Of a DNA stretch of 64,000 nt, positions 4,489-55,401 are shown one piece after another. The notes under the pieces are model-generated. The model did not search any database, was not told the origin of the DNA, and saw nothing but the letters and a program-made list of their open reading frames with translations. The translations under genes and the position numbers were made by a program. How positions within the stretch are numbered: the first letter of the stretch is position 1; every line of letters starts with the position of its first letter. Where the stretch lies: contig JAUHZY010000001.1 in NCBI GenBank assembly GCA_030425825.1, forward strand, positions 512,551-576,550, written 5' to 3'. The stretch is from Alphaproteobacteria bacterium. GTDB taxonomy: Bacteria; Pseudomonadota; Alphaproteobacteria; JAUHZY01.

Positions 4489-4573
4489 GTCAGATAAAAC
4501 TTACTTAAAAGACTTGTTGTTTCTCTGAATTTTTCTTACTCTTACTGTCCTATTAAAAAGGGATCATACCATC

Positions 4574-7141: not shown

Positions 7142-7143
7142 AC

Positions 7144-8364
7144 CTAGCCTTTTTGATTTTCATGTGGGCGTTGTGGGCCAGCTGTTTTGTTTGTGTCCCT
7201 ACCATCTTTTTTGATTTCTGCAAGAAGGGGGACGCTTGGATCAATTGCGCTGCTTTGGTTTTGTGTCGTTTTTTCTAGATCAGATGATATGTTATATTCT
7301 TGTATAAATGGAATGTCTTTAAAGACGCCAATACTTCTTTCAACAACAGTTTTTGCACCTTCTAACATTTGATCAGGTGTTGCGTACTGTTTCTTAGAGG
7401 TTTTGTCTAAAATTCCTGCTCTTTTTAATTTTTCTGCATCTTTTTTAAGAAAAATTTGTCCCGAAACATCAAGCGAGCGTGTTGAAATTAGATCAATCAT
7501 GCCGTTATTCAATAAAACACTGTTACCATACAAGGCCCTTTGATTATGCTTTACAAGATAGTTTATTTCTAAGAGATTTCCTTGTATGTCATATGCAACA
7601 CGACCCTCTGTAACTTGTTTTCCAATGATGCCATTTCCTTTTTCTTCCTTGTTTAAGATGATCGCACCAATTTTACCATTGCTGTGATATCTGATCATTG
7701 CAGAAGAATGTATGAAGGGTTTTTTGCCTGTTCTTGGACCTTTCATGAAGTCAACTTTTTTATAGCTATGTCCATTTCGAAACTCAACAGAATGGTACAG
7801 CGTTCCGCCTTCATAATCACCTTTGCCTTTGATCTCAGCGATCGCATTGCTCAGGCGGAATGTGCCAAGTCCGTCAAGGTTACGAATATTTTTTTGGCCA
7901 GGCTTGTTATCCATCTCGTTATAGGAGGATGCAAAATTAAACTCGGTCTTTCCTTCTTTTGAGTAAGCACCATGAACAAAAGGATCTTCGTTGCGTACAA
8001 TAACATCAACGTAAGCGTTTCCTTTGCCGTTTGTGACCTTGATAACGCTTGAGTTTAAATGATTTACAACTGATTCAGGTTCGATAAGGATTTGAATATG
8101 GCGACCATCTGCAAGATGTGCCGTTCCATTTTCTGGAATATTTTGAACTTGTTTATTTCTCAAGTTTCCGCTTTTGGTCTGTTTTTGTAATAAGATTGTT
8201 TTTTGTGAGGCATCATACGTAATAACATAGTCATGGAAATTGATCTTCAGTAAGCGTTGGTTTTTACGCTGAGGAACTTTCACGAATGCGAAGTCGATTT
8301 TGGAATCTAGCTCTGGAAAGAAAGCTTGTTTGATGCTTTTCGTTGACGTGTATCCTTGATCCAT
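7144..8364 (-). CDS. hypothetical protein (406 aa)
   Basis: Long ORF converging on the asmA-like gene. No recognisable domain. Confidence 0.45.
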   Translation of the reverse strand: MDQGYTSTKSIKQAFFPELDSKIDFAFVKVPQRKNQRLLKINFHDYVITYDASQKTILLQKQTKSGNLRNKQVQNIPENGTAHLADGRHIQILIEPESVVNHLNSSVIKVTNGKGNAYVDVIVRNEDPFVHGAYSKEGKTEFNFASSYNEMDNKPGQKNIRNLDGLGTFRLSNAIAEIKGKGDYEGGTLYHSVEFRNGHSYKKVDFMKGPRTGKKPFIHSSAMIRYHSNGKIGAIILNKEEKGNGIIGKQVTEGRVAYDIQGNLLEINYLVKHNQRALYGNSVLLNNGMIDLISTRSLDVSGQIFLKKDAEKLKRAGILDKTSKKQYATPDQMLEGAKTVVERSIGVFKDIPFIQEYNISSDLEKTTQNQSSAIDPSVPLLAEIKKDGRDTNKTAGPQRPHENQKG

Positions 8365-8462
8365 TTTTTTTCCTCAATTTATCTTTTAGGAAAATGATTA
8401 TAGAGAATATTTGATATAAATCAATTAAAATATCCTTAAAAGATACGGTCATTCCCTTTTTG

Positions 8463-8478
8463 TAGAAAATATGGTATA
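8463..8478 (+). promoter_or_regulatory. extended -10 promoter (TGgTATAAT) upstream of the 8512 CDS
   Basis: Sequence aaatatGGTATAATacag lies about 35 bp upstream of an AAGGGGG Shine-Dalgarno sequence and the ATG. Confidence 0.4.
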
Positions 8479-8511
8479 ATACAGAAGGATTTTTACAAAA
8501 AAGGGGGTTTA

Positions 8512-9459
8512 ATGAAGGAGGACGTGAATATGCAGACATCACATCACTTTAAACAGCCCTTGATTGAGCGCACTTATCACCCTGACCACATTGATATTTA
8601 TATGCCTTATTTGCGGACGCTTTCCCTTGATGAAGCGGGTATTAATGGTGGCTTACGTTCTGCTGCCTTTAACCAAGAAGTGCTGCGAGGTAATTTATTT
8701 GGCGCGCACAAAGCATTTGAAACAGACTTTGTTACCAAAGGCCGTATCAAAAGACCACAACAGAAAAAAGATAAAAAAGATGAGACTGGTTACAAAGGTG
8801 AAAACAAAAACCTTATGCAGTGGATGATGCATATTATGGCGTATTGTTATCTGGCTTGTTGTGGGATGACAGAAACGATTAAAGAAACGTTCTTTCAAAT
8901 GGTTAAAAGAACAGGAAAACAACGCCTGGCACGCAAATCTCTGGGGCTTGTTGGAAAAAAAGGGATTGCAAGAATAGGGGGGAAGCTTCTTTCACGCGGA
9001 ACACCTATTGTCAGTTTATTGTTTCATGGCGGTGCATATCTTTTCGCCAAACAATCTGGAAAACAATCCCAAATTAATGAAGCAAAAGGTGGTCTGCTGG
9101 TCGGTGCATTAAGTGCAGGATCGGTGATTGGCATCAAAGCATTACTTGCTGCATCAATAATAGCACCTGTCGCAGCCCCAATCTTGATAGGTGTTGTTGC
9201 CGTGACAAGCCTGGCTGTGACACTATTTTATGGTCAAGATATTGGAAAGTTTATGACAAAGATTGGCGATAAGCTGTTTAAAAAATCTAAAAAGAAATCA
9301 CAGTATAAGGCGCGTTCTTACGAATTAGGCATGCAAGAAGTTGAGAATACACAACAAGAAGCGGAACAAGTTTTTGCAAAGAAACCTTTTCAAAGGTCTT
9401 CAAGTGCAGCACCTGCACAACAACATCTTATCCTTCAACAGCAAGGTGCTGAAAGATAA
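8512..9459 (+). CDS. hypothetical membrane protein (315 aa)
   Basis: AAGGGGG RBS. Long hydrophobic stretch GGLLVGALSAGSVIGIKALLAASIIAPVAAPILIGVVAVTSLAVTLF. Confidence 0.5.
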   Translation: MKEDVNMQTSHHFKQPLIERTYHPDHIDIYMPYLRTLSLDEAGINGGLRSAAFNQEVLRGNLFGAHKAFETDFVTKGRIKRPQQKKDKKDETGYKGENKNLMQWMMHIMAYCYLACCGMTETIKETFFQMVKRTGKQRLARKSLGLVGKKGIARIGGKLLSRGTPIVSLLFHGGAYLFAKQSGKQSQINEAKGGLLVGALSAGSVIGIKALLAASIIAPVAAPILIGVVAVTSLAVTLFYGQDIGKFMTKIGDKLFKKSKKKSQYKARSYELGMQEVENTQQEAEQVFAKKPFQRSSSAAPAQQHLILQQQGAER

Positions 9460-9468
9460 AGTCTGGCT

Positions 9469-9681
9469 TTATAAAAGCTCATCATCGTTTTGTGGTAAAA
9501 AGTGATCGATATATTGCTGGGCATGCTCTAAGTCAACAGCGCGATCGCTAATAACATACGCATATTTTTCAGCTTTTTCTTCGATCATTTCAGCGGCCAA
9601 ATTCGGATATTTTTTCTCAAGCCTTTTATGAACTTGTACATAAAGACGTAGCTTTTCTTTTGTCGTCATTCTCTGCTGCAT
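9469..9681 (-). CDS. small hypothetical protein (70 aa)
   Basis: ORF only. Confidence 0.3.
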   Translation of the reverse strand: MQQRMTTKEKLRLYVQVHKRLEKKYPNLAAEMIEEKAEKYAYVISDRAVDLEHAQQYIDHFLPQNDDELL

Positions 9682-10038
9682 ATACTTTCCTTCCCTTAAA
9701 CCATTCCAATAATTTGGAATAATTTACACATAACAAGTCCCCAAACTGCGCTAACAATAAGGGTTGCAAAAGATAAAATGTTTTGATGTGTTTTTGAGGT
9801 TTTCGTCGAACTCGGAGGTTCGTCTTCCTCGGCCCTGCAGGATGTTATCGTCGAATCTTTTGTCGAAACCTGCTCAGGTGGCGATATTATAGACATAATA
9901 TATACTCCCTCTTCATATATTATATCCTAAAAAGATACAAATTGTCAATTTGTACAACTTTGTTGTTGATGTGAAGATATTTTTAGGGTATAAAGCGCGC
10001 AAAATAATATTATTTAGGTACATAAGGGCATTAAAGGC

Positions 10039-11241
10039 ATGAGCAAACTTGTCACATATTTAGAAAAAGTAAAAACATCAATGAGTTCAACCGTTTCTTC
10101 AAGAGAGATGATTTCAGATGATTTGTTTCAAGAAGGCTTAGAAGTCATGCCTGCCTTTTTTAAAGAGGATGACTTAACCGTTTTTGAGAATATTTACTCA
10201 AAATACATGCAGGAGATTTCTTCTTTTACAAGTATTCTTGCTGCGAAACTTTCATCCAGTCCAGAGAATAAAGATTATTATCCTTTTTTGATGACAGGCC
10301 TACAGAGCAAAAAGGATGATATGGCCTCTCAACAAGTTGCTCAAATCATGGGTGAGCTTGCATCGACTATGGTAAATAACAAGCTTAAAAAAGATCAACA
10401 AAAAGCTGTTGAGAAATTATTTGCAGATAATCTTTTGCTGCCAATGCTTTCGCGCCTTGAAAAAGGTAAGCCTTCCGTGATTGAAGATGCCATTCTTAAA
10501 GCTGCCATGAAATTGGCAGAAAATGGCTTGTTTGTTTCTGATATTAAAACAGGGTTAATGAATTTTTACCGTGTTCCTATTGCACGAAGCCAAATGACTA
10601 AAATACATAAAGATACTCAAAATTTTGTTGATAAAACATTGCAGCAAAAATTGATTGCTGGATTAACAGATCCTGATAGTTCAATTTACAAAAAATCCCA
10701 TGAAAGAATTAAGCGTGTTGTCTTGGATGAAATGAAAAGAGTGAGCACACAAAATAGTCCTTTTTTCGCAAAAAATCTTTATGAAGATTTGATGAATATC
10801 ACCTTGAAGGATGAGCCAAAAGGCGGTGCTTTTGTTGGCTTTATGAGGCGTTTCTTTGCAAAGCCAACAGCAAAAAATATGTCAGTAGAAAAGGCAAATG
10901 CGTATGACGTGATGCGCAGATTCATTGAAGAAAACCCGACACATCCTATCCTTTTAATGAAGGATGGCGCGTTGGATCGTTTACATAACGGTATCTATAT
11001 GCAAGTCGGACATCCATTGCGTCGATCAGTCGGCGTTGTGCTGGCGCCATATATCAAAAAGAAAAACCCATGGGGCCGTCGTCATGCCAGTTTCCGCGTA
11101 TACAATAATGTCTTAGGACCCAAAAGTCCTGTCGTCAGGTTAATTAATCATATGGATGACTTCGGAAAAGTAATGGGTATAAGTAGTGGTTCACACAAAG
11201 AGAAACAGTTTTCTTTGGTGAAAAATAATCGCGAAAGATGA
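10039..11241 (+). CDS. hypothetical protein (400 aa), first gene of a co-directional cluster
   Basis: ORF with helical composition. No known domain. Confidence 0.5.
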   Translation: MSKLVTYLEKVKTSMSSTVSSREMISDDLFQEGLEVMPAFFKEDDLTVFENIYSKYMQEISSFTSILAAKLSSSPENKDYYPFLMTGLQSKKDDMASQQVAQIMGELASTMVNNKLKKDQQKAVEKLFADNLLLPMLSRLEKGKPSVIEDAILKAAMKLAENGLFVSDIKTGLMNFYRVPIARSQMTKIHKDTQNFVDKTLQQKLIAGLTDPDSSIYKKSHERIKRVVLDEMKRVSTQNSPFFAKNLYEDLMNITLKDEPKGGAFVGFMRRFFAKPTAKNMSVEKANAYDVMRRFIEENPTHPILLMKDGALDRLHNGIYMQVGHPLRRSVGVVLAPYIKKKNPWGRRHASFRVYNNVLGPKSPVVRLINHMDDFGKVMGISSGSHKEKQFSLVKNNRER

Positions 11242-11333
11242 AGTTTTCCAATATAAAAAATAAGTTGACAGCTTTTGTGTTTTGATCTAAAAAGGATACA
11301 AATAAGAATCATCAAAATAAATCAGGGCTGGGA

Positions 11334-11603
11334 ATGACACTAGAAATGACAAGGCAATCTGACGTAAATCAATTTTTCTCTAATATTGGTATGGGAACAC
11401 GACAGGATGGTTTTGATAAGCCTTTAGTCGACCATATGATGGATGTCGTTGGCGGTTTTTTTGCAGATGATCAAGCACAAAAAGCACAAATTCAACTGGC
11501 ACAAAATGACAATAAACCTGCAATTTTTGAAGAGCTGTCACAAACAAGAAAGCAGACAGCAGGATCAGAATTTTTTAACACAAATATAAAGTCTAACGGA
11601 TAA
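11334..11603 (+). CDS. small hypothetical protein (89 aa)
   Basis: ORF within the co-directional cluster. Confidence 0.35.
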   Translation: MTLEMTRQSDVNQFFSNIGMGTRQDGFDKPLVDHMMDVVGGFFADDQAQKAQIQLAQNDNKPAIFEELSQTRKQTAGSEFFNTNIKSNG

Positions 11604-11615
11604 AGGAAATAAAAA

Positions 11616-13511
11616 ATGGCACAACGACAAATACAAACAATGGACAGGTTTCTAGACGCAATTGGTGTGACGCTGGACGAAAAGAGCTGGGACAAGGATA
11701 TAGAGTTCCACGCGCAGCAGTTTATAGGTAAAGATTTTGTGGATGTTTTGCCGCTTAGTCCACAATCATTAGACTTTAACGAGATGGCACAATACGTAGG
11801 TTCAGAAGTAGCAACGGGTGAGAAATTATCCATTTCTTATAAAGACCAGCAAGTGGCTTTTGCACCAGAAACAATCACGCTGATATCGGGCAGTAAAACA
11901 TACAAAATGCAGCAAAGTGTCGATGATAAGGGAACTCTTGTTATTTGGGACGCCGATCTGTCAATCGAAAATGTTGATCAAAATAGATTTATTATTAAAT
12001 ACGGCAAAACAAGTAGCGCAGATGAAGCTTTCTTTGCGCCGTCTTTTCACCAAAGAAAAGGGGATGAGTATACAGAGCTGCGTACAAAGAAGCTGGCAGA
12101 TGGCTTTTATAATATTGATGCACCTGTGATTGAAAAGTACACGGTCAAAGACGGCGCCAAACAGATCACAGCAACATATCGCTTTGATGATGATGGGCTT
12201 GTCGAGTATAAAACTGATAAAGAGCATTTTGTATATGAACAAGACTTTTCTTCTATTACTAAAGATGGTTCTGAGTACAAATTACTTTATCAAGATGGTG
12301 ATTCATATATCGAAGAGAGCCATCCAGATTACACAGTCGTTTACCGCGCCAATGATGAAAAAAAGGTTGTAAGCTTTACGCAAAGTGATGATAGCGGCGT
12401 GATACGCTTTCAGGAAATTATGGCAGATTTGTCAGCGCGCGGTATTGAGTTGGAAGCTCAAGCACCAGAAAAAATAGCGTATACTTTCGCAGATGTTATC
12501 GCAGTGAATCAGTCTTATTTTGAAGACGGTCAGCAAGGTGAGTATCAACATATTGAAAAAGCAGGAACCCACTTCTTTACAACACCTCAGGTGGAAATTA
12601 CATTCAAAGATGGAGATGATTTTTACACCATTAATAATAAAGGCCTCAAAGAAATAAGACAAGTGGACCTAGAAACAAGTTATCCCAATAAAACAGTAAA
12701 AGAGTATGACTCTTTGAACGAGGCGTTGGAAAGAATGCCAAGTGATTTGACAAAAAGTGATAAGCTTTATTTAAACATGGTTGAAAAAACACCTGTTGTT
12801 GAAGGCGCTCATACGCTTCCTTACACTGTTGAAAAAGAATTTAAAGGCCAACAACTTACAAAAGCAACGCTGTCTCGTGATAGCGAAAAAGTTTTTTCTG
12901 TTGGATATGATGGTAAAAGCGAAATGCGTTACAAGGAAATGCCAGGACGTAAAGTCATTCCTATGTTTTCTTCATACAGAGAAACGTTCACGCAGACACT
13001 TCAAAATGGGCGTGTTTTAAGAGGTGAATTGACTTATGATAAGAAAAAAAATCTAGATAATCTCAGTATGACATGGGATGTTGGAAAAAGTAGTAAAGAA
13101 AAAAAATGGGACTTTGCCGTTAGTTTAGGGTTTTCTTTTGAAGACATTACACAAAAGCCAGTTGCTTTCGTCGATAAAGTTGTTCAGTTTTTAATACCAA
13201 GAAATATCAAGCGTCCTGTTTTTGGTTATGCTGATGAGATCTTAGAGTTCGCAAAATTGACAGGTGTTAAGGGGGTTCCAGAAAATAACGCAGTCGATCA
13301 ATATAAGAAGAAAAAGAAAACAGGTTTCCTTGGGAAGCTGGCATTGCTGACAGCAGCACTCAGCTTGAATGCAGCGCAGCTTCAGTCAAACAATATTGGC
13401 AATGACAATCTCGCGTTGTTGGGTGATATGGCTAAAGAAACAGGTGTCGAGGGCGTCAATAAGAACGCTGGAACACAGATATCAGCATTTAATCAAAAAA
13501 CAATGGCATAA
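11616..13511 (+). CDS. hypothetical protein with YD-like beta-hairpin repeats and a hydrophobic C-terminal tail (631 aa)
   Basis: Repeated xYxFxDDGxxEY motifs (TYRFDDDGLVEYK, LLYQDGDSYIEE, EITFKDGDDFYTI). C-terminal FLGKLALLTAALSLNAAQLQ. Confidence 0.55.
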   Translation: MAQRQIQTMDRFLDAIGVTLDEKSWDKDIEFHAQQFIGKDFVDVLPLSPQSLDFNEMAQYVGSEVATGEKLSISYKDQQVAFAPETITLISGSKTYKMQQSVDDKGTLVIWDADLSIENVDQNRFIIKYGKTSSADEAFFAPSFHQRKGDEYTELRTKKLADGFYNIDAPVIEKYTVKDGAKQITATYRFDDDGLVEYKTDKEHFVYEQDFSSITKDGSEYKLLYQDGDSYIEESHPDYTVVYRANDEKKVVSFTQSDDSGVIRFQEIMADLSARGIELEAQAPEKIAYTFADVIAVNQSYFEDGQQGEYQHIEKAGTHFFTTPQVEITFKDGDDFYTINNKGLKEIRQVDLETSYPNKTVKEYDSLNEALERMPSDLTKSDKLYLNMVEKTPVVEGAHTLPYTVEKEFKGQQLTKATLSRDSEKVFSVGYDGKSEMRYKEMPGRKVIPMFSSYRETFTQTLQNGRVLRGELTYDKKKNLDNLSMTWDVGKSSKEKKWDFAVSLGFSFEDITQKPVAFVDKVVQFLIPRNIKRPVFGYADEILEFAKLTGVKGVPENNAVDQYKKKKKTGFLGKLALLTAALSLNAAQLQSNNIGNDNLALLGDMAKETGVEGVNKNAGTQISAFNQKTMA

Positions 13512-13523
13512 AGGAGTTATAAA

Positions 13524-14039
13524 ATGCATTCAGATAACCATCAAAAGGCACAAGAATTTATCGTTGGTGTAGGGTATAAGCCCAGTGTGGATCTAACAGA
13601 AAAACTAGAACAGTTTCTAGGTGATTTACCAACAAGAAATGGAAATGAAGTTTTAGAGCGTGAAGGTGTTCGCTATATAATTCGTGAGGGCGTTGAAGAC
13701 GTTGCTGGTAACACAGTTTCAACAGTTAAAAAGTTTGATAAAGGAAGCCTCACTGAAGAGTATCGTTTTACTAATCAGAAATTGGCTGAATACAAGATCT
13801 ATGAAAATGAAAACACGCTAGAATCTTTTAAAATTGATGCTGATGGAAATTGTCAGTTTGCTCAAAATGGTCAAAAACTGATCTTTAAAACATCAGGGGA
13901 CTACGTTATTTCCAATCGTGTTGTTGCACACAATGAACCATCGACTCTGTTTGAAGAAATCAAAGAAACAGGTGCCCGTTATGGTCTTGATGTTGAGGCA
14001 GGTTTCATAAATCACGCTAAAGAGCAAGTTAATGGATAA
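13524..14039 (+). CDS. hypothetical protein, paralogous repeat family (171 aa)
   Basis: EEYRFTNQKLAEYKIYENENTLE motif shared with neighbouring genes. Confidence 0.5.
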   Translation: MHSDNHQKAQEFIVGVGYKPSVDLTEKLEQFLGDLPTRNGNEVLEREGVRYIIREGVEDVAGNTVSTVKKFDKGSLTEEYRFTNQKLAEYKIYENENTLESFKIDADGNCQFAQNGQKLIFKTSGDYVISNRVVAHNEPSTLFEEIKETGARYGLDVEAGFINHAKEQVNG

Positions 14040-15177
14040 TCAACTGACACGAGAAGAAAAAACATTCATGCGGTTTATTAACCACCATAACCTGCGTGAG
14101 TTCCATCGTGTCGCATTAAATATGTTTGGCTTAAGAAGAGACCCAAAGATCAAACAATTTTTAATTGATTTAGCTGACAGAGGTTACAAAACGCATGCGC
14201 GTGAAGGTGAGAATGGAAAGAACACAATTACTTTCAAGCATGGAGATGAAGAAATCATGTTTGAAAAGCAAGAGCATGGCTTGCTTGCTGAATTAAAAGA
14301 AAAAAAGCCAGTGCCGCGTGTTTTCCAAAAACTATCTTATACAAAATATGACGATCAGCTTGTTGATTCATTGGACGATTTTTTATCAGCAGATGATTTA
14401 AGTATGCTCGGCGATAAAATAAGTAATGCAGAAGGATTTATCGTCAGAAAAACATATCTGCCCGAAGCATATCAAAATAAAACAGCATTTTTAACAAGAA
14501 CAAAAAAGGGCGATAAAACAGTCGTAAGAAATGTTTTTGCCCTGTATCATGATACAGGAACAAATGCTATTGTTAAAAAAGCAATGGGGTCTCGCCGTAC
14601 TTTTTTCAATGAAGACCAAAGCATTGTTGACGTTTTTTCAAAACCTATTAACAAAAAGAATGTGATCGTTCTTTTTCAATATAAAGAAATTAATGGGCAG
14701 AAACATCTTAAGTCATGCCAGATTATGATCAAGGACCCTGTTTCGGGAAAAACCTTGATGTCATTGGATGCAGTTAAAAACAAGTCTCTGGAAAGCTTGT
14801 TAAGCAGTGCAAAGCAACAAAAATGGCGTGATGAACTATTGCGCGGCGCCGCGTTTTCAAACGATGAAAAAGACAAAATTATTGCCCATGCGCAAGAGTC
14901 ATTAGAATTAGTCACTTCTCAAGGCGTTAAATTGCCTTTACCTAAGAAGGTAGAAATGCCTGCTTTTATGAAGGTAGTGGGGGTATTTGTTCTTATGTCT
15001 TTCGGCTTTGCATCTTTTGCAAAACCACAGGTGCAGAAGCTGCCTAAATCACAATCTTATGGGGTTGCTGTGAATGATAATCCTGTCGATATGAAGCTTT
15101 TAAAGGCGGCTTCTTTTGATGGCGCTCATTTCTCTACACAACAAGATAAGCCATCAAGCCAATTTAAGGCGCGATAA
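14032..15177 (+). CDS. hypothetical protein with a C-terminal hydrophobic tail (381 aa)
   Basis: C-terminal MPAFMKVVGVFVLMSFGFASFAKPQVQKLP. Start overlaps the preceding stop codon. Confidence 0.5.
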   Translation: MDNQLTREEKTFMRFINHHNLREFHRVALNMFGLRRDPKIKQFLIDLADRGYKTHAREGENGKNTITFKHGDEEIMFEKQEHGLLAELKEKKPVPRVFQKLSYTKYDDQLVDSLDDFLSADDLSMLGDKISNAEGFIVRKTYLPEAYQNKTAFLTRTKKGDKTVVRNVFALYHDTGTNAIVKKAMGSRRTFFNEDQSIVDVFSKPINKKNVIVLFQYKEINGQKHLKSCQIMIKDPVSGKTLMSLDAVKNKSLESLLSSAKQQKWRDELLRGAAFSNDEKDKIIAHAQESLELVTSQGVKLPLPKKVEMPAFMKVVGVFVLMSFGFASFAKPQVQKLPKSQSYGVAVNDNPVDMKLLKAASFDGAHFSTQQDKPSSQFKAR

Positions 15178-15178
15178 G

Positions 15179-16720
15179 ATGGACGCAAGAATTAAAAAGA
15201 TTGTTGCGATAGAAAAAGCAAACCCAAAAGCTGTTTTCTTTGATGACACGCCAGCGGAAATCACAACGGATTTTGAGAACATATTGTGGGAACACGGTAT
15301 GTTGGATGTGTTCAAAAATGCTGAAAAATACCTGGTAACTTCGCTGTTCGATCAAGAAGACGATGCAATTGCTGAATACGAATATAACAACGTGCCATTT
15401 TCTAGCATTTTCCCTGACGAAGATAACGACACAGATGCCCAAGTAGTGTCAGTACGCGACAAGAAGTGGCCAGAAGGCATGCGTGTTCTGTTGCGCTTTC
15501 AAGGAGATGATTTAGATTATATTCATTTGAAGCGTAGCGATGGAAACAAAGCCTATGCTATGCGTGATAACAAGGAAAGCGGATGGATGTTCAACGAATT
15601 CATGCGCCCAGAAACAACAGGACTAAGCGCTGTTTATCAGTTTTCTCCAGAGGGAGGCGTGACGTCTTATACTTTTTTTGATGAAAAGTCTCTTATGCTG
15701 GCGACAGAAAAATATACTTTTGATGGGGACAAGCTATCGCTGGAAGTAGATGGGAAGTCATATAGCATCGAGCATGATGCGCAAGATGCTACTTATTTCA
15801 ATGCAGATACATTGTACAAAGTTGAAGATATCAAGGCGAACAGTTATGTTTTGAAAGCGTTTGCTGATACAGCGCGAGGCCTTAATGTTCAAAGGATCGC
15901 TGCTGGCGTCCAAGAAACATATTCTTCTGTTGCGCCTTTAAAAGGCATAATCCCTGAAGATGACATTGCTTACATGGAAAAAATCAATGTTACAGGGCCG
16001 CTAAGCGTATTAAAAATCAGTGCTGCCTATTCTTTTGGCATCACGATCAAGGGAATGCAAGATGGCGCTGCGTTCACATATGAATCTCTGTTCTCGCCAG
16101 ATTTGAGGGTGGAAAGTTTTAGAGAGATAAAAGGTGAAAATGTATATCGTCTTGTTAAAAAAGGTGATTCTGGTCATATAAAAGAAGAAATTCAGCACGC
16201 TATTGTGAAGGGAAATTCAAAGCTTGATTTTTATTATAGGAAAGAAGGGACATCACAAAACTTGCGCTATGTTCTTTTTGATCTTAGCGGTATTCGTTCT
16301 CCGGTGACATTCTCTTATGATGGAAGTGACGTGACGGAAAAAATATCACAAAAAAGAGCGCAATGGCAGAAAGGTTTTGAAGCTTTTACCTCAAAAAAGG
16401 AGGCCAAAGAGCTTGGTGATGAGATGTATAAAATGCTGGTTGATAAGAAAGATCGCATGGTAAAGAAAAGGCGCAATATCATAGAGTATGTCAAAGGAGC
16501 GAATGGTTTTTTAAGGCCACTTGCCCTGTTCATCGCCATGATTCCAGCAATGGCAGCCTTCGGAAAAGCGAAAGCGCAACCTTTGCCTTATAAGCAGCCC
16601 GTTATCAAAAATGTTTTAAATGATAATACGCCACATATTATTGGTCTTGATGAAGTAGGGCGCTCAGGAGTCGCATATTTTGATGTTAAAAAAGGATATG
16701 AAAATGTTTACAGCAAATGA
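15179..16720 (+). CDS. hypothetical protein, paralogous repeat family with a C-terminal hydrophobic tail (513 aa)
   Basis: KYTFDGDKLSLEVDGKSYSIEHD motif. C-terminal FLRPLALFIAMIPAMAAFGKAKAQPLP. Start at 15179 is chosen because it abuts the upstream stop; the ORF-track start at 15116 would overlap the previous gene. Confidence 0.5.
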   Translation: MDARIKKIVAIEKANPKAVFFDDTPAEITTDFENILWEHGMLDVFKNAEKYLVTSLFDQEDDAIAEYEYNNVPFSSIFPDEDNDTDAQVVSVRDKKWPEGMRVLLRFQGDDLDYIHLKRSDGNKAYAMRDNKESGWMFNEFMRPETTGLSAVYQFSPEGGVTSYTFFDEKSLMLATEKYTFDGDKLSLEVDGKSYSIEHDAQDATYFNADTLYKVEDIKANSYVLKAFADTARGLNVQRIAAGVQETYSSVAPLKGIIPEDDIAYMEKINVTGPLSVLKISAAYSFGITIKGMQDGAAFTYESLFSPDLRVESFREIKGENVYRLVKKGDSGHIKEEIQHAIVKGNSKLDFYYRKEGTSQNLRYVLFDLSGIRSPVTFSYDGSDVTEKISQKRAQWQKGFEAFTSKKEAKELGDEMYKMLVDKKDRMVKKRRNIIEYVKGANGFLRPLALFIAMIPAMAAFGKAKAQPLPYKQPVIKNVLNDNTPHIIGLDEVGRSGVAYFDVKKGYENVYSK

Positions 16721-17645
16721 TGCAGAACAAATCTTGGTCAAAGCAGGGTTTGATATGCAAGAACCTTATTCTGAATTGAATGACTTTATTGCTTGTGAAG
16801 GCTTTAAAAAAATAACAGTTGGCGACCTTAATGGTATTGATGACATTATTTTAAAGCATCGCGCAGAAGGGTACGGTGTTGTTGTCAAATACACGCCAGA
16901 CCAAAAAGGTTTTTGCGCGATACGCAATTATGATGATGGCAGAAAGCAAGAATATCGTTTCGGACACGATGGCAAGGCATTAGGCTTTGAGTATTCTGAA
17001 AACAATAAAGTGACAGCATATTTGATTTGCTCGAATGAAGATGATGATGACTTTAGGCTTGGTCAACAGACACTGGATGACACAATCGTGCCGCCACGCG
17101 ACAATTCGTATTTGTTTGAATTTAAAAATGAAAAAAATGGAGAAGAAGCGATTTTCTTTGTTTCGGAAGGCAAAAAAGAACCAGACGTTATTTCATTAAA
17201 ACAGAAAAACTATCAAGTTGATTATGGTCCTAATGGCGAGCTGTGGAATTTTGACTTAAAGAAGAAAGACAGAACATTCCCTGTTGTTATCAAAAATGGT
17301 GAAGCTGTCAGCGTTAGGAAAGCAGGATCAAATCTTAGTGAGGCTTTGTATGATGCAGAATGCGCAGCACATCGATTAAAAGACCTAGGTATTAGAATGC
17401 CGCAGAGCTTGAATCAGAACATTTTTGCTTATGTTTTTAATGGGTTAGTAAATCTTGTGCGTCCAAAATCTGCGATGACAAGTGTGCTTGTCGTAGGAGC
17501 ATTTAACGCAAATGCCACACGCGTTGAAATGCCTGAAATATCACAAGGTATTGCTTGCCAAGCATATGATCAAACGTCACAGCAAGATAATGTTCAAGAT
17601 GCAAAATCTGTCAATTATCCCATGTCACGCGATCGTACTTTGTAA
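16698..17645 (+). CDS. hypothetical protein, paralogous repeat family (about 315 aa)
   Basis: EYRFGHDGKALGFEYSENNKVTAY motif. The start (16680, 16698 or 16704) is ambiguous. Confidence 0.45.
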   Translation: MKMFTANDAEQILVKAGFDMQEPYSELNDFIACEGFKKITVGDLNGIDDIILKHRAEGYGVVVKYTPDQKGFCAIRNYDDGRKQEYRFGHDGKALGFEYSENNKVTAYLICSNEDDDDFRLGQQTLDDTIVPPRDNSYLFEFKNEKNGEEAIFFVSEGKKEPDVISLKQKNYQVDYGPNGELWNFDLKKKDRTFPVVIKNGEAVSVRKAGSNLSEALYDAECAAHRLKDLGIRMPQSLNQNIFAYVFNGLVNLVRPKSAMTSVLVVGAFNANATRVEMPEISQGIACQAYDQTSQQDNVQDAKSVNYPMSRDRTL

Positions 17646-17673
17646 GCATATCTTTGCGTTTCTCATGCTGAAG

Positions 17674-18183
17674 TTAGATCAAGCCATAATACATTGCTAA
17701 ATGTTCAAGGGCCAGGCGCAGTGTTGTCATACCTTCGATTTGGGCTGTGCGTCCTTTGCGTCCTTTCAAAGTGGCCCAATCACCCGCAGTATCTTCTAGA
17801 CAACAAACATGTATCAAGATAGGAGACAATGCGCGCCCTATATCTCGGATTGTTGTGCGAAAGCGTTCTTGTGCTTCTAGTCGTGACTCGGTTTCTGATC
17901 CTTGGCTGCTTGCCAGGCGTCCTGTCATAAGTGTTTTATAGCTTGCCGTCATTTTGGGCGATAAGCCTGCATAAAGAAAATCAGCATGCAGTTTTTTGCC
18001 GGCTTCATATTGAAACTTTGTAATTTGGTCGCGGCGGAAATAGCGTTCTAATGGCGCAGATGTCATATTTCTTGCGCGGCTTTGACCATTTTTAGGGGTC
18101 TCTACAATCATCTCAAAATGTTGTGCCATATATGCGCTGCCGTAATCATTTGCGTGAGATTGTATATGGGGTGTATGGGACAT
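17674..18183 (-). CDS. hypothetical protein (169 aa), phage-like early region
   Basis: ORF in a minus-strand block that also contains an XRE regulator. Confidence 0.4.
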   Translation of the reverse strand: MSHTPHIQSHANDYGSAYMAQHFEMIVETPKNGQSRARNMTSAPLERYFRRDQITKFQYEAGKKLHADFLYAGLSPKMTASYKTLMTGRLASSQGSETESRLEAQERFRTTIRDIGRALSPILIHVCCLEDTAGDWATLKGRKGRTAQIEGMTTLRLALEHLAMYYGLI

Positions 18184-18241
18184 TTCATTCTCCTTTTGGT
18201 TTCGTCTTCAGATGCCAGCATGGCTTTGTTATGTGCGGGGT

Positions 18242-18835
18242 TTATGCCTTTTTAATATCAAAATCTAACTCGCGGACCATGGGGTAGTGCTTGCGAATGA
18301 TTAAAAGGAGCAAGTCCCCGTAATTTGTTTGGCACCACCGGCGGTTTAGGTCTTTATCAAATTGTAATACGGCATTTTCACCTGTGATTTTCAAATGTGC
18401 TTTTTGCAACCAGCTGCGAAACTTTGCGATTTCTAAATGCTCGAGCAAGTCGCGTTTCCATGGTTCAGAAATGCTTTCAGGTTGTATGCGGGTTTGATGG
18501 ACTTGGCAAGCTTCCACAATTTTGCCAACAGTGGGCCAGCGATACGTTGTGTTTTCTTTTACAACGTCTCGCCAACCTTGACGGAGCGCGTCATGAGGGA
18601 TATGCGAAAGGGCCTCAATATACGCGTTGGCGATAATGGCAGATTGCTGATTCAATTCTTTTTCATCAGCCATGATAGGGGGGTAATACATAATCAGCAT
18701 TTCAAGCAAAACAGTATCCCAAATTTTTTGCAGTTTTTCTTTGTCCAAGCAAAGAGATTCTAAAAGACGTTTTGTCGTCATAAGATCAGGTTTATAGCGG
18801 ACCCTATGTGATTTTGCGGTAGATTTCAAAGTCAT
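18242..18835 (-). CDS. hypothetical protein (197 aa)
   Basis: ORF only. Confidence 0.4.
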   Translation of the reverse strand: MTLKSTAKSHRVRYKPDLMTTKRLLESLCLDKEKLQKIWDTVLLEMLIMYYPPIMADEKELNQQSAIIANAYIEALSHIPHDALRQGWRDVVKENTTYRWPTVGKIVEACQVHQTRIQPESISEPWKRDLLEHLEIAKFRSWLQKAHLKITGENAVLQFDKDLNRRWCQTNYGDLLLLIIRKHYPMVRELDFDIKKA

Positions 18836-19376
18836 TGATTTCCTCCTTTACGGCATGATCTGTATTTATATTTTTATAAGTATCTTCTTTATGTATTGTG
18901 CGTTTGTTTGTGTGTGAGTTTGTGTTTGATGACGTGTTCGAGCGCCTTGCCATTGCTGTCATTGGCGCAGTTGATAATCTGTGTGAATCATTGTGTGCAG
19001 GTTTGAAAAGGTGATCCTTATAATCTGTAATTGTTAAAACCGTTCCCTGCACTTTGTGTGCGTCTAAACTTGCAAGGTTGCTTTGTTGAATGCGCTTTAA
19101 AAACATGCGTGCTTTGTGCTCGGTAATATCAAATAAAGAAGCAATAAGGCGCGATGTAATATAAAGTTGACCTGCTTTTAGCTGGATGACGCGTGTCGAA
19201 GGCTGGGTAAGAGAAATCTCAAAGTCTTCCCAAGCCGCCATTTCGCATATCCACCCCCAAATTGCAGATTCGGTCATGTCTTTGAAAATGGGATTATACC
19301 ATTTGTCTCGAAATGTCTTTGTGAAACCACGACGTGGATAATAAGGAGGTGGTAACGGCTTTTTATAATACATCAT
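18804..19376 (-). CDS. hypothetical protein with a possible winged-helix DNA-binding segment (190 aa); possible phage replication-associated protein
   Basis: GQLYITSRLIASLFDITEHKARMFLKRIQQ resembles HTH segments of phage replication initiators. The match is weak. Confidence 0.35.
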   Translation of the reverse strand: MMYYKKPLPPPYYPRRGFTKTFRDKWYNPIFKDMTESAIWGWICEMAAWEDFEISLTQPSTRVIQLKAGQLYITSRLIASLFDITEHKARMFLKRIQQSNLASLDAHKVQGTVLTITDYKDHLFKPAHNDSHRLSTAPMTAMARRSNTSSNTNSHTNKRTIHKEDTYKNINTDHAVKEEINDFEIYRKIT

Positions 19377-19382
19377 CTGCCC

Positions 19383-19625
19383 CTAGTCGTTGCGTTCGCG
19401 CAGTAATAAGTCATAACCCAGTGCATTTACGCAGGCTTCAAAGTTCATCAAATTAGGCGTGCCATTCCCGTGTTCCCAAATCAGAACGGCGTTTCTATTA
19501 AGCCCTGCATGTTTTGCCAGTCTCTCTTGAGAAACATTCTTTTTTTTGCGAAGCTCATGAAGCTTGCGTATAAGAGGGTGGTTACTTTTGCAGATACCGC
19601 GCTTTTTTGTGTTTTTTTGAGTCAT
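19383..19625 (-). CDS. XRE-family (Cro/CI-type) HTH transcriptional regulator
   Basis: KKNVSQERLAKHAGLNRNAVLIWEHGNGTPNLMNFEACVNALGYDL is a canonical HTH_XRE pattern. 80 aa. Confidence 0.65.
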   Translation of the reverse strand: MTQKNTKKRGICKSNHPLIRKLHELRKKKNVSQERLAKHAGLNRNAVLIWEHGNGTPNLMNFEACVNALGYDLLLRERND

Positions 19626-19884
19626 TTAAGACCTCCTCTGTTTGATAGGTTAAGTAGTCTCGCCAGTGGTGGCGATAGTTAAGAAAAGATTTTTTTAATC
19701 CTTCTTTTAGTAGATCTTCTTCTTCAGGAGACAAACAGCATTTCTTCAAAAAGCGTAAATTATGAATATTTTTTATGATCTCAGATTTCCACATTTTTGC
19801 CATAACTTGAGATTTATAGCCTTTGTGTTGCCCGCTTAGGTGGCGTGGAATGCGTCCGTCATATTTTAAACTTAATGTGTTCAT
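19582..19884 (-). CDS. hypothetical protein (100 aa)
   Basis: ORF overlapping the XRE gene start. Uncertain. Confidence 0.3.
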   Translation of the reverse strand: MNTLSLKYDGRIPRHLSGQHKGYKSQVMAKMWKSEIIKNIHNLRFLKKCCLSPEEEDLLKEGLKKSFLNYRHHWRDYLTYQTEEVLNDSKKHKKARYLQK

Positions 19885-20188
19885 ATCCTTCTTCCTTGAG
19901 CAACAAATTGCAATAAATGCAACCTGCGCGTCAAGAGAAAATGACTATGACCGTATAAGTTTCAAAATGTAAATAATAAAGAATATTTGTTACTTATATA
20001 TTAAATATCAACTACTTAAAGTTAAGACTTTATTGTGATGTTTAAGATGTTTTCCTATAAAAAGCAGGGGAACTTTTTTTATACAATTTCATTTTGCGCA
20101 ATTTATAATTGTATAAATTTCATAGTGAGATAAAATATTTCTTAATTTGAGAATTCATGTTCTTGGATAGGTTTGCTGGGAATAGGGG

Positions 20189-21649
20189 TTATAGACCTTG
20201 TAGTAATTGTAAAATAGCATTCTCGTGTTGCGCAGCAAATGACAGGTTATTGATTTGCAGCTGACTGCGTGTTTGAAGTGATAGGTTGTTGGCTGCTTCT
20301 TCTTCTAAATCGGCAAGAGTCAGTTTGTCACCGGCTTCCAGGTTGACGTTAGACACCTGGTCAGCAAACGAAAAGCGATTTTGCAAAATGCCATAATCAG
20401 ACACAAAATAAGCTTCTGCTGCATCAATACGGTCAAGCGCACCATTAATTTGATTCAATGTCGTTTGTATGTTTGCATCTGTAAAATCGACAGTCCGTAA
20501 AGATAAAATCACAGTGCGTAAATCAAAATTATCAATAAGGTGGTTCGTATCTTTGCTAAGTCGTATATCAATGTGATCCTCGTACTCAAGCGAAGCATCA
20601 ACAATGTCGGGGTTTCCATAGGCCGCAATATAGTTGTCAGGAACATTCCCTGCCATGTCTACATATCCATTGGGCAGATCGCCACGAAATGCTGCAACCA
20701 AGTTGTTTGCTTGTGAATGTTCTGGTGCATCAAGAATATTACCACCATTATAAAGCTCTGTAATCTCAGCAGGCGTAAGGTCGGTTGAAAACAGATCAAC
20801 TTCGGGAATTGTTCCCATATGGCGTCTTGTCGCTTGCGTCGTGCTCATGCCTGTCATTTCTGTGCTTATGCCCGCGCCGGCAGGGATAACTTGGGGCGCG
20901 CCAACCTGGACACCATTACGGTAATAAGTAACTGTGGCACCATTTCTAACAAAGCTCATCATATGTAGGTTGCCATCATCCACGCCAACATCATTGGGGA
21001 AAACAACAAAGCTTGATCCGCCGTTAGCTCTGTAATAAATATCATCGCCGGCCATATAAATAAGATAGCCGTTAGCGTTGTTGTTAGATAAAGGGTAGGA
21101 TTGGTTTGCAGCATTAGGCTCATACGACATCCACATATTGACAGTGTTTGTTGTCCCTAAGTCAATCGGATTGCCGCCATTGTTATCCACACGCACATAG
21201 TCATCAACGCCATCATATTGTGGGCCACCAACATCGTCTGTTAAAAGGTTTATGCCATCTTTGTTTGAATCAAGTAAAATATCATCATATTCACGCAGCA
21301 ATTTGTTCGCATCAGGTTCTAGCAGTACAGCATCAGCTTCGCTGAGATTAAGCGCTTGTGTTGCTAGCCCTTTTACAGCTTCCATCACAGTTCTTGCTGC
21401 GGTAATGCCATTTTGTGTGACTTGTAATGTTGAAATGCCTTGGCCGATAGCGTCTTTGCGGCTCAGCATAAAGCTGGATGTATCGTATTGTGTCTCTGAC
21501 AAAAAATAGGCAGGGGCGTTGTCTAGAACCTCTGCAACTTTTTTTCCTGTCGCAAGACGTGCATCAGTTCTGTCGATATATTGTTGTGTTCTTCGAAGGG
21601 CAATTAGTGCGTTACGAGATGCCTCACTTAATCTGATTGAATCAACCAT
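20189..21649 (-). CDS. fliC: flagellin with a LamG_3 (concanavalin-like) module replacing the hypervariable domain
   Basis: Flagellin N-terminus (NALIALRRTQ...RLATGKKV...DNAPAY) and C-terminus (LTLADLEEEAANNLSLQTRSQLQINNLSFAAQHENAILQLLQGL). The central segment YDGVDDYVRVDNNGG...NTVNMWMSY...LHMMSFVRNGATVTYYRNGV...FSTDLTPAEITELYNGGNILDAPEHSQANNLVAAFRGD is homologous to RTX residues FDEVDDYIRLDGG...AQFRDG. GAGG RBS. Confidence 0.8.
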   Translation of the reverse strand: MVDSIRLSEASRNALIALRRTQQYIDRTDARLATGKKVAEVLDNAPAYFLSETQYDTSSFMLSRKDAIGQGISTLQVTQNGITAARTVMEAVKGLATQALNLSEADAVLLEPDANKLLREYDDILLDSNKDGINLLTDDVGGPQYDGVDDYVRVDNNGGNPIDLGTTNTVNMWMSYEPNAANQSYPLSNNNANGYLIYMAGDDIYYRANGGSSFVVFPNDVGVDDGNLHMMSFVRNGATVTYYRNGVQVGAPQVIPAGAGISTEMTGMSTTQATRRHMGTIPEVDLFSTDLTPAEITELYNGGNILDAPEHSQANNLVAAFRGDLPNGYVDMAGNVPDNYIAAYGNPDIVDASLEYEDHIDIRLSKDTNHLIDNFDLRTVILSLRTVDFTDANIQTTLNQINGALDRIDAAEAYFVSDYGILQNRFSFADQVSNVNLEAGDKLTLADLEEEAANNLSLQTRSQLQINNLSFAAQHENAILQLLQGL

Positions 21650-21694
21650 TTAAACCTCGTCTAAAATAAATCAAAATATACCTTGTGTCTGTCA

Positions 21695-21710
21695 TGCATA
21701 TTTTGTGCCA
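21695..21710 (-). promoter_or_regulatory. sigma-54 type promoter (-24/-12) for fliC1
   Basis: Minus-strand sequence TTGGCACaaaatATGCA matches TGGCAC-N5-TTGCA, about 45 bp upstream of the fliC1 ATG. Confidence 0.45.
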
Positions 21711-21756
21711 AAGTTTCTTATGTGTTTTATGCGTTATCTTGTTTGGAAGAGGGCGC

Positions 21757-23238
21757 TTATGACCTGCCCCCAAACAAGATATCAATCAAGTTCTGTATTG
21801 ATCGGTTTGAGTTCGTCATTGAGAAAATGCTCAATTGCTCACGTGTCTCAAGAGCCAATCTATTCGCAGATTCTTCTTCTAAATCTGCCAGCGTCAGTTT
21901 ATCGCCTGCTTCTTCATGCGTGTTGATCAGATCTTCTGTGAACTCAAGGCGGGTTTGTAATAATGCAAAGTCTGTTGCAAAGCTGGCAGCAGTGCTGTCA
22001 ATCCTATTCAGGGCAGCGTCAAGTCCATCAAGTGTGGCGTCTAAACCTGCGGAAGAAAAATCAACACCCACAATCCCTAATGAGAAAGTTCGCATATCAA
22101 CAGAGTGAATTGTGTGTGTTGTGTTGTCACTAAAATCAACGATCAGATCTTCTGCATACTCACCTGCTGTCGGCGCATCTGTGTTGGCCCAGAAATCAGA
22201 TAAGTTTGCATTTTGAATCGTGCCATCATTTCCATTTCCTGAGCTGTCATATGCTGTCGTACCATTTCCTTCGTCTAATGGCCAATAACCTTCTAGGCTG
22301 GATCCTGGAATAGCGCCACTGGTGTAAAGTGTTGCGACTTCTGATGGTGTAAGCGCTTCATTCCAGAGGCCTGTATTGGACATAGACCCCTCAAAAAATG
22401 GCCCGCCTGGCTTCAAGGCACCAATTGTCATATCAACAGTGGGATTGTGCATTGATGTAATGGGGTCATCGTCGTTCATAACAACAGCAGCCTCTGCGCC
22501 ATCAACATACAATCTTAAGTCACCATTATCCCAAGTGAAGCCTACATGGTGCCAATTGCCGTCATTAATAGGAACGGTTGTCTCATAGTTCTTGCTTGTT
22601 CCATAAGTGCCATCACCACTAATCAAGACATTAAGCTCACCAGATGCTGTCAGGCCTAGATAAAATCCTCTTTGATTTCCACCTTGTTCATAATGGCCTG
22701 TCATATATGATGATGTGTCTGTTGTTTGTACCCAAGTAAAGTTTGATAAATCGGTTAAGCTATGGCCAATATCTCCAACGTTTATGTGATCATTTACTCC
22801 ATCAAATGTTGCGACAAAATCTTCTTCAACAAGTAAGTTTGTGCCGTTCATATGCGTATCAGCAATAAGGTTGTTATACTCACCCAGTAGTTTATTAGCT
22901 TGCGCTTCTAGGATGGTTCTCTGTGCTGCAGATGCATTGCGCGCTTCTTCAGCCAGACCCTTGACCTGCTCAATGATGGCGCGACCACTGGTCAGGCCAT
23001 GCTGCGTTGCTTTCAACGTACTGATCGCTTGATCAATATCGTCTTTGCGTTTCAGTAGGCTATCCGCCTTGTCATAAAGGCCCTTCGCTTTGAAGTACTC
23101 AACAGGACCGTCCAGAATGTCGTTGACCTTCTTACCTGTCGCCAGGCGCTTCTCAACAGTCGCTGTCAGATCCTTGATCTGTTGATGGTTCAACAAGCTG
23201 TTTCTCATCGCGGAAGTGAGCTTAATGTCATTGATCAT
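21757..23238 (-). CDS. fliC: flagellin with a LamG_3 module replacing the hypervariable domain
   Basis: Start MINDIKLTSAMRNSLLNHQQ preceded by a GGAGGTGGG RBS. The ORF-track start at 23292 lacks an RBS. Flagellin N and C termini (LTLADLEEESANRLALETREQLSI). The insert FDGVNDHINVGD...LYVDGAEA...LEGYWPLDEGNGTTAYDSSGNGNDGT is homologous to the first LamG module of the RTX protein. Confidence 0.8.
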   Translation of the reverse strand: MINDIKLTSAMRNSLLNHQQIKDLTATVEKRLATGKKVNDILDGPVEYFKAKGLYDKADSLLKRKDDIDQAISTLKATQHGLTSGRAIIEQVKGLAEEARNASAAQRTILEAQANKLLGEYNNLIADTHMNGTNLLVEEDFVATFDGVNDHINVGDIGHSLTDLSNFTWVQTTDTSSYMTGHYEQGGNQRGFYLGLTASGELNVLISGDGTYGTSKNYETTVPINDGNWHHVGFTWDNGDLRLYVDGAEAAVVMNDDDPITSMHNPTVDMTIGALKPGGPFFEGSMSNTGLWNEALTPSEVATLYTSGAIPGSSLEGYWPLDEGNGTTAYDSSGNGNDGTIQNANLSDFWANTDAPTAGEYAEDLIVDFSDNTTHTIHSVDMRTFSLGIVGVDFSSAGLDATLDGLDAALNRIDSTAASFATDFALLQTRLEFTEDLINTHEEAGDKLTLADLEEESANRLALETREQLSIFSMTNSNRSIQNLIDILFGGRS

Positions 23239-26476: not shown

Positions 26477-26512
26477 TCTGTTTTTCCAGACAATGCCGCA
26501 TCAAGATAACCC

Positions 26513-31070: not shown

Positions 31071-31074
31071 CGTG

Positions 31075-55400: not shown

Positions 55401-55401
55401 C

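Follow-up and report, generated by a model that had tools for sequence, protein, structure and literature searches.

What do the seven genes at positions 10039–17645 of this stretch encode, and do their products belong together as one family? The stretch, which we will call the window, comprises 64,000 nucleotides (positions 512,551 to 576,550) of contig JAUHZY010000001.1, a 1,662,365-bp (1.66 Mb) contig that is the source genome here, from an Alphaproteobacteria bacterium. The genes lie on the plus strand and are labelled A to G. A preliminary description of the region had taken their products for paralogs with Rhs-like YD repeats and a conserved hydrophobic C-terminal tail, reminiscent of a secretion or anchoring signal. 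The analysis points to a different answer. The genes form a genuine operon whose products are orphans, and the demonstrable relatedness among them is confined to a C-terminal module in the adjacent proteins E and F. Based on these observations, we tentatively propose that the cluster is a lineage-specific orphan operon carried as mobile-element cargo. Its products would be cytoplasmic; E and F would be held at the inner membrane by a tether, C perhaps as well, and the others would act as soluble partners.

Gene A (10039–11241) encodes an orphan of 400 residues with a net charge of +17, and the product contains neither Cys nor a hydrophobic segment. Gene B (11334–11603; 89 residues) encodes an acidic, predicted soluble protein in the reading frame that is also used by C and D. 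The product of gene C (11616–13511; 631 residues) is acidic (−21), carries a KKKKK patch, is a strict orphan, and appears β-rich in a low-confidence model. Gene D (13524–14039; 171 residues) encodes a predicted soluble protein that also has no hydrophobic segment. Gene E (14032–15177; 381 residues) encodes a basic protein (+15) with the putative C-terminal module at residues ~300–381 (nt ~14929–15177). Gene F (15179–16720) encodes 513 residues from the ATG at 15179, which is the start used here, while an alternative TTG upstream at 15116 would give 534 residues. Its C-terminal module is predicted to be homologous to that of E. Gene G (16704–17645) encodes 313 residues from its ATG. The intergenic gaps from A to G are, in order, 92, 12, 12, −8, 1, and −17 nt. 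The seven co-directional, tightly packed genes of the preliminary description are thus confirmed by the open reading frames (ORFs), gaps, start codons, ribosome binding sequences and independent gene calls, and every peptide string quoted in that description is present in the proteins.

Several observations show that these seven genes are real and translationally coupled as an operon. All seven starts are ATG, and a Shine–Dalgarno (SD)-like AAGG/AGGAG sequence is found 6–10 nt upstream of most of them (weaker for A and B). The G+C content by codon position in the cluster is 0.45–0.56 at the first position, ~0.32 at the second and 0.24–0.37 at the third; this coding pattern, in which the first position exceeds the two similar later ones, matches that of the flanking conserved, bona fide genes. 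From the base composition (38% G+C), in-frame stop codons would be expected at ~6.6% of codons, so that ORFs of 400–631 codons are well beyond chance length (P ~1e-12 for a chance ORF of at least 400 codons). The only other public copy of the region, the Logan contig ERR3428545 (17,386 bp), is 100% identical to window positions 4414–21799, and independent gene calling on it yields identical starts.

The arrangement of B, C and D raises another explanation, namely that the cluster consists of decay fragments of one or more larger genes, or of spurious ORFs mimicking an operon. B, C and D lie in one reading frame and are separated by stop codons and 12-nt spacers (11603–11616 and 13511–13524), and there are no homologs from which selection could be proved. 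However, the two junctions are near-identical. The B/C junction reads TAA-AGGAAATAAAAA-ATG, with an SD sequence in its 12-nt spacer and two in-frame stops, and the C/D junction reads TAA-AGGAGTTATAAA-ATG, again with 12 nt. Both are well-formed coupling signals, and therefore B, C and D are not likely to be the pieces of a broken gene. The starts, the ORF lengths, the codon-position pattern and the identical independent assembly from another read set also argue against decay, which we regard as very improbable. Since B, C and D have a common frame, read-through of the stop codons at B/C and C/D would fuse their products.

The products do not appear to form a paralog family, the exception being the tail module of E and F. 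An all-versus-all BLASTP comparison was made with A–G and two neighboring orphans, U1 and U2, as a 9-sequence database; its best E values were 0.004–0.07, which is not significant. Single-sequence hhalign over the 36 pairs gave best P values of 0.014 and 0.019, which are not significant after correction. As a positive control, BLASTP over the 51 larger ORFs of the window recovered four genuine paralog families with E values of 1e-38 to 1e-140, and none of these includes A–G. A Gibbs sampler applied to C, D, E, F and G rediscovers the strings TYRFDDDGLV, EYRFTNQKLA, KYTFDGDKLS and EYRFGHDGKA, and the “EYRF..DG.L” hairpin is the best ungapped motif in common across the cluster proteins. Its score is nevertheless the one expected for shuffled sequences, at 79.4 versus 79.4 ± 1.4 for a width of 10 and 103.7 versus 103.1 ± 1.7 for a width of 14. 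A paralog family is therefore not supported by significant BLASTP, hhalign or motif similarity. The N-terminal domains show no statistically significant similarity beyond chance, an outcome that the preliminary description itself had counted against a family.

The same motif underlies the proposal that the products are a Rhs/YD-repeat-type polymorphic toxin or shell-protein family (PF05593 RHS_repeat; TIGR01643). The likeness consists of a few isolated strings with an aromatic-x-aromatic pattern, a D/N-G turn and an aliphatic residue; C, D, F and G have one string each that loosely fits Y-x-F/Y-x(2,3)-D/N-G-x-L. However, there is one copy of the EYRF-type motif per protein instead of tens, tandem repeats are missing, and self-BLAST detects no internal repeats even at E ≤ 50. 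Neither Pfam RHS_repeat nor the NCBIfam YD models match A–G at E ≤ 1, and the core strings YxYDxxG and PxxxxDPxGL are absent from A–G, U1 and U2 by regular-expression search. Counts of YD-like hairpin expressions relative to shuffles are uninformative apart from one site in G. The proteins are also of the wrong size, since Rhs proteins exceed 1000 residues and those of the cluster, at 171–631 residues, are too short. Rhs/YD membership is thus refuted at the sequence level, and we give it hardly any credence. The YD-like repeats of the preliminary description reduce to a single chance-level motif. K, D, F and V are somewhat over-represented in the cluster proteins, and hairpin-like strings can therefore easily turn up in them by chance. 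This negative result is useful in itself: lone Y-x-F-x-x-D-G-x-L strings arise by chance in K/D/F/Y-rich proteins of A+T-rich genomes and are not to be taken as YD repeats.

Relatives outside the cluster have not been found either, and the seven products are, as judged from these searches, taxonomically restricted orphans. A, C and F retrieve only themselves in a word-indexed search of 5.8 billion proteins, and so does C in an exhaustive phmmer (HMMER) search of 1.84 billion cluster representatives. At 90% identity, the proteins that were looked up are all singletons, even FlgE of the same window. Genome-contig scans with C gave no relatives, nor did scans of metagenomes with E or the E/F tail alignment, or of viral contigs with G, F and A, and a genome-contig scan with the flanking AsmA protein returned no syntenic loci. 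Pfam, NCBIfam, PHROG and PADLOC models give nothing above noise for the nine proteins A–G, U1 and U2, which bears out the earlier statement that the proteins have no recognizable domains. The PADLOC matches, DrmD at E = 0.002 over 57 residues in A and Specificity_I at E = 0.005 in E, are at noise level, and no known anti-phage defence system in PADLOC-DB matches the cluster above noise. Searching the PDB by sequence with C, F, E, G and A returned no match below E = 0.05; the hits to a Fab light chain and to gephyrin are noise. Structure prediction, which the preliminary description had suggested, was run on C and G. The single-sequence AlphaFold2 models have a mean predicted local distance difference test score (pLDDT) of 33 for C and 32 for G; they are too poor for the fold to be read, and a fold search on them would therefore be meaningless.

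What remains of the earlier claims is the hydrophobic tail. An N-terminal signal peptide is missing from all seven proteins, and A, B and D are devoid of hydrophobic segments. The 19-residue window of highest hydrophobicity in the whole protein ends 42, 52, 51 and 47 residues before the C-terminus in C, E, F and G, respectively. Four of the seven proteins thus have their segment inside one 11-residue window (P = 0.003 if positions were uniform), and such a placement is seen in no other ORF of the window. The segments lie on the plus strand with their genes. That of C, which is weak, spans residues 571–589 (nt 13326–13382) and is followed by a 42-residue tail; that of E spans residues 311–329 (nt 14962–15018), with a 52-residue tail; and that of F is encoded at nt 16508–16564, with a 51-residue tail. 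In G, the segment is SAMTSVLVVGAFNANA (nt ~17445–17501), which ends 47 residues from the C-terminus and is too polar for a transmembrane helix. In all four proteins, the residues that follow are hydrophilic, and the segment is thus not the C-terminal end. The presence of a hydrophobic segment near the C-terminus is confirmed for C, E and F, with one each.

The four segments have a common design, in which a Lys/Arg patch is followed by 10–15 apolar residues and then by a small-x-small motif. The strings are KKKKK…LALLTAALSL-NAA in C, KK…VVGVFVLMSFGF-ASFA in E, KKRR…LALFIAMIPAMAAF-GKAKA in F, and RPK…SAMTSVLVVGAF-NANA in G. The N-terminal flank of the segment has a net positive charge of +4 in C, +3 in F and +2 in G. 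Nested in-frame genes for small secreted peptides were also considered; a Met that could serve as an internal start precedes the hydrophobic segment in E and F, and C has none there. The Hessa sums over 15-mers, which are position-independent approximations and not the output of the full ΔG predictor, are 0.1 for E, 0.4 for F, 2.3 for C and 4.7 for G. Genuine transmembrane or signal segments elsewhere in the window have sums of −0.0 to −2.8. The mean Eisenberg hydrophobicity <H> is 0.69 for E, 0.64 for F, 0.51 for C and 0.32 for G. By these values, the segments of E and F would be marginal membrane helices, that of C a weak one and that of G an improbable one. An amphipathic in-plane anchor was also considered for the tails and was rejected; the hydrophobic moment of all four segments is low.

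The polarity of the C and G segments is one argument for another explanation, in which the products are soluble cytoplasmic proteins with no link to membranes or secretion and the segments are buried helices or strands of globular C-terminal domains. Together they could make up an accessory complex in the cytoplasm, such as a defence or exclusion system of an undescribed type carried by a mobile element. The sums and <H> values of C and G are too polar for a transmembrane helix, and the AlphaFold2 model of G, itself of low confidence, is non-helical at the segment. Also, the cluster adjoins phage and mobile-element genes, and defence islands are commonly found near such genes. On the other hand, E and F have 12–15 consecutive apolar residues with Lys/Arg flanks, followed by Pro/Gln-rich sequence, which would be unusual for a buried element. 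The conserved position of the segment in four otherwise unrelated proteins is hard to explain by a core helix, and the family scans provide no enzymatic domain and no PADLOC match above noise. Entirely soluble products are, in our estimate, rather unlikely.

Whether the tails are related was assessed with shuffles that keep the basic, hydrophobic and hydrophilic segments separate. The tails of E and F are similar, with a score of 52 versus 25.8 ± 5.5 (z = 4.8, p = 0.001). The similarity between C and F is marginal (p = 0.02), and that of the pairs C–E, C–G, E–G and F–G is at chance. In a MAFFT alignment, the E and F tails are 28% identical over ~80 residues with 21 invariant columns, including F..F..M....A.F.K...Q.LP..Q.....VNDN. 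The pattern of the module is a basic patch, 12–15 hydrophobic residues, K.K.Q.LP.K, and NDN. A hidden Markov model (HMM) of the E/F tail, run against the six-frame translation of the window, does not retrieve the tails of C and G. Because the similarity is significant for E and F and the HMM misses the other two, the adjacent E and F would have a homologous C-terminal module of ~80 residues, and C and G would resemble them in architecture only. The conserved tail of the preliminary description therefore stands for E and F, and the segment position is common to C, E, F and G; the similarity of C to F is marginal, that of G is at chance, and the element does not lie at the C-terminus itself.

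These observations can be combined in the operon model put forward at the outset, in which the cluster would have arrived in an accessory stretch that is low in G+C and rich in mobile-element and prophage genes, within an isolated alphaproteobacterium-like genome. The ~80-residue module of E and F would most simply have come from duplication or exchange of the tail. The large N-terminal domains would be made in the cytoplasm, since the cluster proteins lack an N-terminal signal peptide. E, F and possibly C would then be tethered to the inner membrane in an N-in/C-out orientation by a short signal-anchor-like segment (a basic patch, 12–15 hydrophobic residues and a small-x-small, AxA-like motif), leaving a tail of 42–52 residues in the periplasm. 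The other four, A, B, D and G, would remain soluble and act as partners, with translational coupling providing for their synthesis in stoichiometric amounts. Our best guess for the role of such a complex is an envelope-associated accessory function brought by a mobile element. The surroundings are consistent with this origin: a DnaD-like loader, a Cro-like helix-turn-helix (HTH) protein and a DUF6456 protein adjoin the cluster, and a CI-like repressor, TerL, a portal protein and a GH108 lysin are found farther off.

A number of points weigh against this model. Anchoring is deduced from crude hydrophobicity sums, and the segments are far less hydrophobic than the genuine transmembrane and signal segments of the window. 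The two sides of the segment are equally positive in E and F, and the predicted topology is therefore ambiguous. C and G may be without any membrane segment. Because homologs are lacking, neither conservation nor covariation nor a usable structure model can be drawn on, and the operon is known here from its sequence alone. The mobile-element origin is suggested by neighborhood and composition, and neither an integrase nor att repeats were found.

Immediately upstream of A, a divergent intergenic region (9897–10038) contains, on the plus strand, a candidate sigma-70-like promoter, TTGATG-17-TATAAA, which was read by eye and has no tool match. On the minus strand, a promoter scan detects a perfect sigma-70 promoter, TTGACA-18-TATAAT (12/12), at 9948–9919. 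Two small minus-strand ORFs downstream of this promoter (9469–9948 region) diverge from the A–G operon. The first (9896–9696) encodes 66 residues with a C-terminal transmembrane segment and the second (9681–9469) encodes a predicted soluble protein of 70 residues; each has a strong SD sequence. Farther upstream are the orphans U1 (8512–9459, plus strand; 315 residues), which has a Gly-zipper-like, Gly/Ala-rich multi-transmembrane region, and U2 (7144–8364, minus strand; 406 residues). Both probably belong to the same low-G+C accessory stretch as the cluster. The multi-transmembrane region of U1 is 34% identical over 74 residues (E = 5e-4) to the plus-strand ORF at 61285–61788, and U1 weakly matches the C-terminal region of the NCBIfam “T6SS effector BTH_I2691 family” (T6SS, type VI secretion system), at 19 bits versus a cut-off of 150. 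The match may reflect just a compositionally similar membrane region. Beyond U2 and U1, the window encodes an RTX/LamG protein, FlgE and an AsmA-family protein. FlgE is ~32% identical to alphaproteobacterial FlgE proteins on plasmids and chromids, which is the one hint to taxonomy, at the level of class, among these results; tblastn searches of plasmids and phages with the DUF6456 protein and the DnaD-like loader described below gave none.

Downstream, the operon is adjoined by a convergent minus-strand module (17674–19884), which lies outside the operon and encodes a DUF6456 protein, a DnaA_N-like protein, a DnaD-like helicase loader (PHROG phrog_2514, E = 1.6e-10), a Cro-type HTH protein and a 100-residue ORF. 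Such a module is typical of mobile-element or phage replication. Beyond it are two Flagellin_N+LamG proteins and a CI/S24-like repressor. The two flagellin-type proteins (20189–21649 and 21757–23292) have an inserted Laminin_G_3 domain each and are 33% identical to each other; their LamG domains are 42% identical to that of the RTX-repeat protein at 389–2809. The ends of the Logan contig fall exactly at 4414, where flgE has its 3′ end, and at 21799, within the second flagellin paralog; they are probably assembly breaks at repeats. The G+C content is 0.37–0.39 across the cluster versus 0.45 in the conserved flanks. No tRNA, Rfam element or integrase marking island boundaries was found, and a search for flanking direct, inverted or att repeats gave only short matches at chance level.

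The remainder of the window contains further phage-type and multi-copy genes. TerL (Terminase_6N) is encoded at 39339–40715 and an SU10-type portal at 51383–53605 (Pfam E = 6e-224); the best phage match of the portal is Pelagibacter phage HTVC106P, at 44% identity. The two genes are 11 kb apart, with toxin/immunity cassettes and the GH108 protein between them, an arrangement that suggests a rearranged or decayed prophage. In the GH108 protein (42667–44730, minus strand; 687 residues), the GH108 muramidase domain is N-terminal (E = 1e-20), an N-terminal signal peptide is missing, and a hydrophobic transmembrane region lies ~77 residues from the C-terminus. The cassettes are three tandem two-gene units at 47543–51547. 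Their lysozyme-side proteins (starting at 47543, 49025 and 50312 on the plus strand; 253–312 residues) are 44–72% identical and have weak phage-lysozyme/pesticin-like matches. Their partners (48467, 49766 and 51065 on the minus strand; 158–162 residues) have an N-terminal signal peptide, are convergent and end-overlapping, and are 46–66% identical. By sequence, the array looks like a lysozyme-type toxin/immunity array. At 53598–59726, two paralog families alternate: Sel1/MotX-like proteins with an N-terminal signal (54365, 57144 and 58875, minus strand; 43–61% identical) and their partner ORFs (56260 and 58047, with a partial copy at 53598, plus strand; 52–63% identical).

A run of large ORFs (577, 1009, 711, 508 and 461 residues) at 24743–39202 has no Pfam, NCBIfam or PHROG match, and orphans are therefore the rule in the window and not peculiar to the cluster. 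Because half of the ORFs in the 64-kb window are without a family assignment, the cluster as it stands is another block of taxonomically restricted genes and is unexceptional for this genome. What is new in it is a set of orphan sequences whose general kind is familiar.

The surroundings also bear on the suggestion that the proteins are exported. C, E, F and G could be secreted membrane-targeting effectors, that is, substrates of a type IV secretion system (T4SS), a type III secretion system (T3SS) or flagellar apparatus, or a type I secretion system (T1SS). In such effectors, the semi-hydrophobic segment would avoid the signal recognition particle (SRP) and insert in a host membrane after translocation, and the export signal would lie in the C-terminal ~80 residues. 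The missing N-terminal signal peptide, the orphan status, the variable N-terminal domains and the positionally conserved segment would agree with this. The small genome and low G+C content would also fit a host-associated lifestyle. However, no T4SS, T3SS-injectisome or T6SS genes and no chaperone-like partner were recognized in the window, where the secretion-related context is limited to flagellar genes and one RTX protein. The lack of Cys in A, B, C and F would agree with export, but Cys is low window-wide (0.4% outside the cluster versus 0.3% inside). The C-terminal ends proper differ (…NQKTMA, …SQFKAR, …ENVYSK, …SRDRTL) and have no common charge pattern; no BID, RTX or other known signal domain is found, and no relation of the C and G tails to the E/F module can be detected. 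We consider secretion of these proteins unlikely.

A bolder possibility is that C, E, F and G represent a new class of proteins, in which unrelated N-terminal domains are joined to a common “reverse signal-peptide” module ~45 residues before the end. The basic patch, the short hydrophobic core and the AxA/Q-LP motif would then act as a new type of signal for export, anchoring or processing; for instance, a periplasmic peptide of ~45 residues could be released, or semi-hydrophobic effectors could be delivered to a host membrane. We regard this as decidedly doubtful. If it were true, many more carriers would be expected in the rest of the genome. If the E/F module were a general targeting signal, it would provide a handle for listing the lineage-specific secretome or membrane proteome of a poorly known, probably host-associated alphaproteobacterial lineage.

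Compared with known systems, the segments appear to match no known C-terminal sorting signal. The LPXTG, PEP-CTERM, GlyGly-CTERM and type IX secretion system C-terminal-domain-type signals place a motif, a transmembrane segment and a basic cluster, in that order, at the very end of the protein, and they depend on a signal peptide at the N-terminus. In T1SS/RTX substrates, the C-terminal signal follows RTX repeats. The likeness to these systems is that of a common C-terminal element on differing N-terminal domains. In the cluster, however, the order of the elements is reversed (basic, hydrophobic, AxA-like/Q-LP), 42–52 residues follow, and there is no N-terminal signal peptide. RTX repeats are missing as well: A–G contain neither HemolysinCabind matches nor the GGxGxD strings that would precede a T1SS/RTX signal. 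Such repeats are present in the ORF at 389–2809, which is unrelated to A–G.

The transmembrane effectors of T3SS and type IVB secretion systems (T4BSS) resemble the cluster proteins in having no Sec signal, few semi-hydrophobic segments and orphan-like sequences. Krampen et al. (2018) reported ΔGapp(12–17) values of about −1.5 to 0.5 kcal/mol for such effectors and about −2 for SRP substrates (PMC6110835); further literature on transmembrane-domain effectors of T3SS/T4BSS is available (PMC11602083, PMC12981334). With 15-mer sums of 0.1 and 0.4, E and F are near the upper edge of the effector range (PMC6110835), a rough, purely sequence-based comparison since the sums are position-independent and are not values of the full ΔG predictor. 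The cluster differs from these systems in that the window offers neither secretion-system nor chaperone context and the proteins have no recognizable translocation signal.

Finally, the proteins can be compared with tail-anchored and bitopic proteins. True bacterial tail-anchored membrane proteins, as described in Escherichia coli, have their transmembrane domain at the very C-terminus (PMC6794478). The segments of C, E, F and G are followed by 42–52 residues, are shorter and less hydrophobic than normal transmembrane domains, and show no sequence relation to a known family; they are neither C-terminal nor hydrophobic enough for this class. Anchoring in the inner membrane with an N-in/C-out orientation is exemplified in bacteria by TssL/DotU-type anchors. 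The cluster proteins are like such N-in/C-out proteins in their architecture, with a large, signal-less N-terminal domain and a single C-proximal segment preceded by Lys/Arg.

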